Assembly (NCBI RefSeq): GCF_030013205.1
Contig: NZ_CP122648.1
Reading direction: 5' to 3' (one strand)
DNA: 64,000 nt
Source of the DNA: Escherichia coli
GTDB lineage: Bacteria > Pseudomonadota > Gammaproteobacteria > Enterobacterales > Enterobacteriaceae
Within the stretch, counting starts at the first letter, position 1. Every line of letters starts with the position of its first letter. This document shows, in pieces, positions 11,786 to 13,420 of the stretch. The notes under the pieces were generated by a model, which searched no databases, was not told the origin of the DNA, and worked only from the letters and a program-made list of their open reading frames with translations. The translations under genes were made by a program, and so were the position numbers.

Positions 11786-11874
11786 AGCACATCAGATTTC
11801 CTGGTGTAACGAATTTTTTAAGTGCTTCTTGCTTAAGCAAGTTTCATCCCGACCCCCTCAGAGTCGGGATTTTT
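11786..11874 (+). ncRNA. dsrA: DsrA small regulatory RNA
   Basis: Near-exact match to the recalled DsrA sequence (...CACATCAGATTTCCTGGTGTAACGAATTTTTTAAGTGCTTCTTGCTTAAGCAAGTTTCATCCCGACCCCCTCAGAGTCGGGATTTTTTT) including its terminal hairpin and U-tract. Confidence 0.9.
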
Positions 11875-12507: not shown

Positions 12508-13131
12508 TTAGCGCATGTTGACAAAAATACCATTAGTCACATTATCCGTCAGTCGGACGACATGGTAGATAACCTGTTTATTATGCGTTTTGATCTTACG
12601 TTTAATATTACCTTTATGCGATGAAACGGTCTTGGCTTTGATATTCATTTGGTCGGAGATTTGAATGGTTCCCTGACCTGCCATCCACATTCGCAACATA
12701 CTCGATTCGGTTCGGCTCAATGATAACGTCGGCATATTTAAAAACGAGGTTATCGTTGTCTCTTTTTTCAGAATATCGCCAAGGATATCGTCGAGAGATT
12801 CCGGTTTAATCGATTTAGAACTGATCAATAAATTTTTTCTGACCAATAGATATTCATCAAAATGAACATTGGCAATTGCCATAAAAACGATAAATAACGT
12901 ATTGGGATGTTGATTAATGATGAGCTTGATACGCTGACTGTTAGAAGCATCGTGGATGAAACAGTCCTCATTAATAAACACCACTGAAGGGCGCTGTGAA
13001 TCACAAGCTATGGCAAGGTCATCAACGGTTTCAATGTCGTTGATTTCTCTTTTTTTAACCCCTCTACTCAACAGATACCCGGTTAAACCTAGTCGGGTGT
13101 AACTACATAAATCCATAATAATCGTTGACAT
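12508..13131 (-). CDS. rcsA: Capsule-synthesis transcriptional co-activator RcsA (LuxR-type HTH)
   Basis: 207-aa [42 protein letters not shown]... Confidence 0.95.
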
Positions 13132-13381
13132 GGCATACCCTCACTCAATGCGTAACGATAATTCCCCTTACCTGAATATTTCATCATGACTAAACGGAAC
13201 AACATGGGTCACCTAATGCGCCACTCTCGCGATTTTTCAGGCGGACTTACTATCCCGTAAAGTGTTGTATAATTTGCCTGGAATTGTCTTAAAGTAAAGT
13301 AAATGTTGCGATATGTGAGTGAGCTTAAAACAAATATTTCGCCGCAGGAGTATCCTGGAAGATGTTCGTAGGTATTATTTT

Positions 13382-13395
13382 TCGGATAATCCTTA
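13382..13395 (-). promoter_or_regulatory. Possible RcsAB-box-like element upstream of rcsA
   Basis: Minus-strand TAAGGATTATCCGA resembles the RcsAB-box consensus TaAGaatatTCctA and is embedded in a palindrome (ATCCTTAGGAT); ~250 bp upstream of the rcsA start, so assignment is tentative. Confidence 0.3.
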
Positions 13396-13420
13396 GGATA
13401 ACATGATAAACGTTACGGAA

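Follow-up and report, generated by a model that had tools for sequence, protein, structure and literature searches.

The RcsAB-box-like element far upstream of Escherichia coli rcsA is very probably the operator through which the gene is autoregulated

Results

An RcsAB-box-like element at the fliR end of the fliR-rcsA intergenic region

The window, that is, the whole stretch of 64,000 nucleotides of Escherichia coli DNA that was analysed, carries rcsA and fliR next to each other on the minus strand, both supported by their open reading frames and by the RefSeq annotation of identical E. coli DNA. Downstream of rcsA and running in the opposite direction lies the DsrA small RNA (11786-11872, plus strand; Rfam RF00014, 96 bits), as expected for this locus. 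In the intergenic region upstream of rcsA, an earlier note made from the sequence alone had flagged a palindromic, RcsAB-box-like element at 13362-13400. The 351 nt around the flagged site can be found in 5219 of the 5426 complete E. coli genomes, where the flanking genes carry the names fliR and rcsA. The features that matter for its interpretation are the following.

12508..13131, minus strand: rcsA coding sequence, the regulated gene
13421..14206, minus strand: fliR coding sequence, the upstream neighbour
13382..13395, minus strand (read 13395->13382): very probable RcsAB box of rcsA, 14 bp, TAAGGATTATCCGA, assigned from its sequence, its consensus core, the Salmonella probe and its conservation

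The string behind the flag, TCGGATAATCCTTAGGATAA, is an exact match to the window at 13382-13401 on the plus strand and reads TTATCC-TAAGGATTATCCGA on the rcsA strand; the string is thus real, while the range given for it begins 20 nt early and stops 1 nt short. Its placement about 250 bp upstream of the rcsA start, beside the fliR stop, holds: the box TAAGGATTATCCGA is intergenic, spans -264..-251 relative to the rcsA ATG on the upstream side of the gene, and starts 25 nt past the fliR stop codon. Direct reading of the sequence also yields two short overlapping palindromes, GGATAATCC (13384-13392; 4+1+4), which lies inside the box, and ATCCTTAGGAT (13389-13399; 5+1+5), together with a direct repeat of GGATAA at 13384 and 13396. 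These palindromes were checked by eye, as the repeat search did not report them at its thresholds. Only the first is kept outside Escherichia, the second palindrome and the GGATAA repeat being confined to that genus; the description of the element as palindromic is partly correct.

The RcsAB-box consensus is TaAGaatatTCcta, whose right half is taken to be the half-site of RcsB (PMC4325325). The E. coli element keeps all consensus core positions (T1, A3, G4, T10, C11 and A14) and matches the consensus string at 10 of 14 positions overall, leaving four mismatches; it fits less well than TGAGGATATTCCTA, the majority form of other genera. Compared with the RcsB box, TN(G/A)GAN4TC(T/C)NA, whose TC/GA core is read by RcsB K180 (PMC7913699), it has a single mismatch at position 5, which the Salmonella site shares. 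In the window as a whole, consensus matches with at most three mismatches number 7 against 4.2 expected, and for the core T.AG.....TC..A there are 18 occurrences where 22 would be expected. Taken by itself, the motif match therefore does not exceed chance in the window, and the significance of the box derives from its position, its conservation and published binding data. One further core match in the intergenic region, TAAGCTCACTCACA at 13314-13327, was rejected as a box, its TAAG not being conserved. A full-text literature search with the E. coli box and neighbouring strings returned nothing relevant.

The box is a conserved island in Enterobacteriaceae

For comparison we used the rcsA loci of 80 Enterobacteriaceae species, the best 80 of 234 loci, with RcsA identities of 80-97%; Klebsiella, Erwinia and Yersinia lie outside this set. 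One of the 80 species, with just 249 nt of sequence upstream of rcsA, is uninformative for the box. In each of the other 79, among these best 80 of 234 loci, the degenerate pattern T[AG]AGG[AT][ATC][ATG][ATG]TC[CT][TG]A has exactly one match upstream of rcsA, and elsewhere in the same loci it is found only twice more in 718 kb on both strands. The common form across species (best 80 of 234 loci) is T[AG]AGGAwwwTCykA.

The same picture emerges from an alignment of the best 80 of 234 loci that was anchored on the ATG only and not on the box. Here, conservation is at least 90% at 10 of the 14 box positions and also at the two A residues directly 3' of the box, which are not part of the search pattern, and it falls to 30-70% over the ~12 nt that follow, so that the box stands out as a discrete island. 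In the 80 box-anchored sequences (best 80 of 234 loci), the AA is invariant at 2.0 bits and the TGTCTT flank just 5' of the box retains 1.0-1.5 bits; judging from this pattern, the AA is a possible extension of the operator.

13380..13381, minus strand: two A residues directly 3' of the box, invariant in the 80 box-anchored sequences (best 80 of 234 loci)

As an observation in its own right, E. coli strain G5 (NZ_CM127462.1; positions 340-480 of locus L081) carries an IS1 inserted inside the RcsAB box, with the junction …gagtcattacc/GGATTATCCGA. The insertion parts the left half-site from the right half and rcsA and constitutes a natural disruption allele.

A fixed distance separates the box from the putative rcsA promoter

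Downstream of the box, three features bear on where transcription of rcsA begins; a fourth lies on its other side.

13269..13298, minus strand: putative rcsA core promoter, with -35 TTTACT (13298-13293), an 18-nt spacer and -10 AATTAT (13274-13269)
13231..13366, minus strand: indel-free, highly conserved block of ~135 bp in the alignments (best 80 of 234 loci)
13240-13262, minus strand: first ~25 nt of the putative rcsA transcript, ACTTTACGGGATAGTAAGTCCGCCTGAAA
13423..13440, minus strand: TGAATTGCCATTAATATA, bound by the Rac prophage regulator YdaT; this published operator lies within the final codons of fliR, 27 nt before the box on the rcsA strand, and was placed by locating the sequence from PMC11879457 in the window

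The promoter would set the transcription start near 13262, which gives a 5' UTR of ~130 nt and a box centre at ~-127. The promoter hexamers were not listed by a stringent sigma-70 promoter scan of the region. The start-site estimate agrees with the published YdaT footprint on TGAATTGCCATTAATATA, described as '~170 bp upstream of the rcsA transcription start site' and as overlapping 'the recognition sites for RcsA-RcsB' (PMC11879457).

Spacing between the box and this promoter hardly varies: in 79 of 80 sequences (best 80 of 234 loci), the start of the box is 119 bp from CAAATTAT in the -10 region and 95 bp from ACTTTACTTT. The distance from the promoter block to the rcsA ATG, in turn, ranges from 66 to 231 bp in the best 80 of 234 loci. 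The ~250 bp between box and ATG are thus the sum of a fixed operator-promoter distance and a long 5' UTR of variable length.

Beginning 16 nt past the box, the conserved block takes in the promoter and reaches ~30 nt into the transcript; in the remainder of the rcsA 5' UTR, indels abound (best 80 of 234 loci). A segment of the block, ACATTTACTTTACTTTAAGA..ATTCC.GGCAAATTATAC, is almost invariant across genera in the best 80 of 234 loci; the block also includes CTCACA and a weak box-like sequence, CCAGGATAcTCCTG (13358-13345; CCAGGATA...CTG), with 8 of 14 consensus matches. The first ~25 nt of the putative transcript are likewise almost invariant across genera, which hints at an RNA-level or initiation-region element.

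The orthologous Salmonella site is bound by phosphorylated RcsB

In Salmonella, Casino et al. (2018, PMC5758874) used an RcsAB-box EMSA probe, 'rcsA (-275 to -247)', with the sequence 5'-CCTGTTTTACTAAGGTTTATCCGAAAATA-3', which contains TAAGGTTTATCCGA. RcsB~P bound this probe, and two mutants in DNA recognition, K180A and Q185A, no longer did; according to the authors, RcsA assists RcsB binding and rcsA is autoregulated through the Salmonella box (PMC5758874). RcsB~P alone binds the site weakly, and full binding is reported to need RcsA (PMC5758874).

The Salmonella enterica box TAAGGTTTATCCGA and the E. coli box TAAGGATTATCCGA are identical at 13 of 14 positions with alignable flanks, differing only in the central base at position 6 (A in Salmonella, T in E. 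coli). Each of them occupies ~-264..-251 relative to the ATG, between fliR and rcsA, and an A-run follows in both species. The E. coli 5' flank in addition repeats TTATCC, which creates the second overlapping palindrome, whereas Salmonella lacks it. By sequence and position, the E. coli box is the ortholog of the experimentally bound Salmonella site. The earlier note had been hesitant about its assignment, given the distance of ~250 bp from the start codon, and had proposed a comparison with the published rcsA box: the Salmonella probe agrees in position to within 1 nt, no mismatch of the kind that would speak against the assignment was found, and the doubt over the distance is removed, since the published box occupies the same position.

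For E. coli itself, a 2025 footprinting study locates the sites recognised by RcsA-RcsB on the fliR side of the intergenic region, 'far upstream' of the promoter of rcsA (PMC11879457), and a review names E. coli, Salmonella and Klebsiella as bacteria in which rcsA is autoregulated. The assignment of the E. coli box accordingly builds on its orthology to the Salmonella probe and on these secondary citations.

Discussion

Taken as a whole, position, conservation and the published binding of the Salmonella site support the proposal that the element serves rcsA autoregulation. We put the probability at roughly 0.93 that it is the RcsAB box of the E. coli rcsA promoter, through which RcsA and RcsB activate rcsA. 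As such, it is an already described operator, and the finding is an ordinary one. The definition of the E. coli site is credited to Wehland & Bernhard 2000 and Ebel & Trempy 1999, the former of which presumably lists this same box sequence. What the case does illustrate is that a real, experimentally characterised operator can be recovered from sequence alone by a reader without tools.

How would such an operator work? In the scheme that we favour, the Rcs phosphorelay would phosphorylate the response regulator RcsB, and RcsB~P together with its unstable partner RcsA would bind the 14-bp pseudo-palindrome TAAGGATTATCCGA, the core being read mainly by RcsB K180. Binding would activate rcsA transcription and so create a positive feedback, limited by H-NS silencing of the promoter and by Lon proteolysis of RcsA. 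The sequence, position, orthology, conservation and spacing in this scheme come from the present analysis, and RcsB~P binding, the help of RcsA, autoregulation and the roles of H-NS and Lon come from the literature. Acting at a distance, the box would hold a constant place relative to the promoter, its centre falling at ~-127 and 119 bp separating its start from the -10 region; candidate routes for activation from there are a face-of-helix contact, DNA bending and anti-silencing. The strict 119-bp spacing would argue for a geometry-dependent activation. In capsule (colanic acid) regulation, the rcsA RcsAB box is the point at which positive feedback acts, and the invariant spacing, like the promoter-like site that abuts the box on the antisense strand (see below), is a small addition that leaves the overall picture unchanged. 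Both additions could guide work on the activation of an H-NS-silenced promoter from a site as far away as ~-127.

Other proteins are known to act in the same region, and the element could in principle be a site for one of them instead of RcsAB: a binding or nucleation site of H-NS in a curved, AT-rich silencer, or a site of the prophage regulator YdaT. It is true that rcsA is silenced by H-NS according to the literature, as was confirmed in the 2025 E. coli study (PMC11879457), that a curved region has been predicted upstream of the promoter at -130 to -400 (PMC6070653), and that YdaT footprints in the neighbourhood of the box (PMC11879457). However, the H-NS region is a bendability prediction without a defined site, made in a paper that mentions neither RcsAB nor the start site (PMC6070653), and the YdaT operator is a separate sequence 27 nt upstream of the box. 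Moreover, neither protein explains why the RcsAB consensus positions are conserved column by column in 79 species (best 80 of 234 loci), nor why RcsB~P binds the Salmonella ortholog, and we regard this explanation as very improbable. In the YdaT study, two boxes are described, of which 'box1' overlaps the YdaT operator (PMC11879457). The rcsA box at 13382-13395 may be 'box2' of that study or may lie inside its protected area. A weak box-like 14-mer, TAATATAATTCCGT (13429->13416, 9 of 14 matches), also overlaps the YdaT operator and, going by its location, may be 'box1'.

Still less credible is the notion that the element has no regulatory role for rcsA at all, being either a chance resemblance or a terminator of the fliLMNOPQR operon. 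Consensus-level matches do occur at chance frequency in the window, and the site, with its short palindromes, sits just past the fliR stop codon. Against a terminator, minus-strand RNA from 13440 to 13350 folds with only -7.9 kcal/mol (z = +0.95; 174 of 200 shuffles fold at least as well), and the fliR-rcsA intergenic region yielded no terminator-like site; an intrinsic terminator of the fliL-R operon was rejected, as the minus strand offers no stable GC-rich hairpin followed by a U-run. Chance, for its part, is excluded by the combination of conservation, fixed spacing to the rcsA promoter and published binding.

A different kind of alternative concerns the opposite direction of transcription. 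Next to the box, the promoter scan picked up a site on the plus strand.

13398..13427, plus strand: weak sigma-70-like site ATAACA-18-TATATT, antisense into fliR, 9 of 12 matches

No more than 2 nt separate the -35 hexamer of this site from the box, whose centre would fall at ~-45, and the -10 hexamer overlaps the stop codon of fliR. The box could mainly, or also, serve a leftward antisense promoter into fliRQP as an activator site close to that promoter, so that rcsA and an antisense flagellar transcript would have one operator in common; we hold this reading to be possible yet doubtful. Several observations speak for it besides the abutting site itself. The same register, as (A/G)A(A/G)ACA-17-TATTAT, gives the best antisense-strand site in 37 of the 80 species, Salmonella included (best 80 of 234 loci), the TGTCTT flank on the 5' side of the box is conserved, and RcsB sites usually lie just upstream of a -35 element, as stated in a review. 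In addition, Wang & Harshey 2009 are reported to describe Rcs-dependent antisense transcription of fliPQR in Salmonella from a weak promoter in the fliR-rcsA intergenic region, and low-level activity of an antisense fliQ reporter is on record. The site at 13398-13427 is a candidate for the counterpart of that promoter. On the other side, the antisense site is weak (8-9 of 12 matches), sigma-70-like sites in the region are not more frequent than in shuffles (3 found against 4.1 expected), and the register is not the best antisense-strand site in Kosakonia, Buttiauxella and Cedecea. Part of its conservation may also reflect coding sequence, as the antisense -10 overlaps the end of fliR. A role in antisense transcription would add to rcsA autoregulation and not replace it. 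We thus offer only tentatively the extended idea that the rcsA operator is bidirectional, a distal activator of rcsA and at the same time a promoter-proximal driver (~-45) of a conserved weak antisense fliRQP promoter, in which case the operator would exceed 14 bp and include the TGTCTT 5' flank and the AA 3' flank. If this were true, the Rcs-dependent antisense flagellar transcript of Salmonella would exist in E. coli and many other Enterobacteriaceae as well.

Finally, we would like to place the autoregulatory rcsA box into the context of other Rcs boxes. The RcsB homodimer box of the rprA/osmC type (PMC7913699) shares its pseudo-palindromic layout and its TC/GA core with the rcsA box. It differs in carrying A at position 5, where the rcsA box has G, and in its usual location, as RcsB-only boxes mostly lie just upstream of the -35 (review), whereas the rcsA box is ~95 bp upstream of the putative rcsA -35. 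Relative to its own promoter, the rcsA box hence does not have the features of an RcsB-only box; it abuts a -35 only when viewed from the putative antisense promoter. Another variant is the 'RcsAAB' box of Yersinia hmsC, an RcsAB box with an adjacent repeated half-site (PMC4325325), which recalls the additional TTATCC copy that directly precedes the rcsA box in E. coli. However, the repeated part is the left, putative RcsA half in Yersinia hmsC and the right-half hexamer in E. coli rcsA. Since only Escherichia has the TTATCC repeat, it probably serves no function.

With the rcsA box and the flhDC box, the window holds two RcsAB boxes.

58190-58203, minus strand: flhDC RcsAB box, TAAGATTTTTCCTA, 12 of 14 matches to the consensus, core identical to the Salmonella P1flhDC EMSA probe

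The flhDC box lies 173-186 nt upstream of the flhD open reading frame (58376..58735, plus strand), with uspC on its other side. In E. coli and Salmonella it belongs to the same operator family as the rcsA box and is, with 12 of 14 matches, closer to the consensus. Francez-Charlot and colleagues (2003) reportedly placed it a short way downstream of the flhDC start site, as a site of transcriptional repression. The rcsA box, unlike the flhDC box, is a distal upstream activator site.
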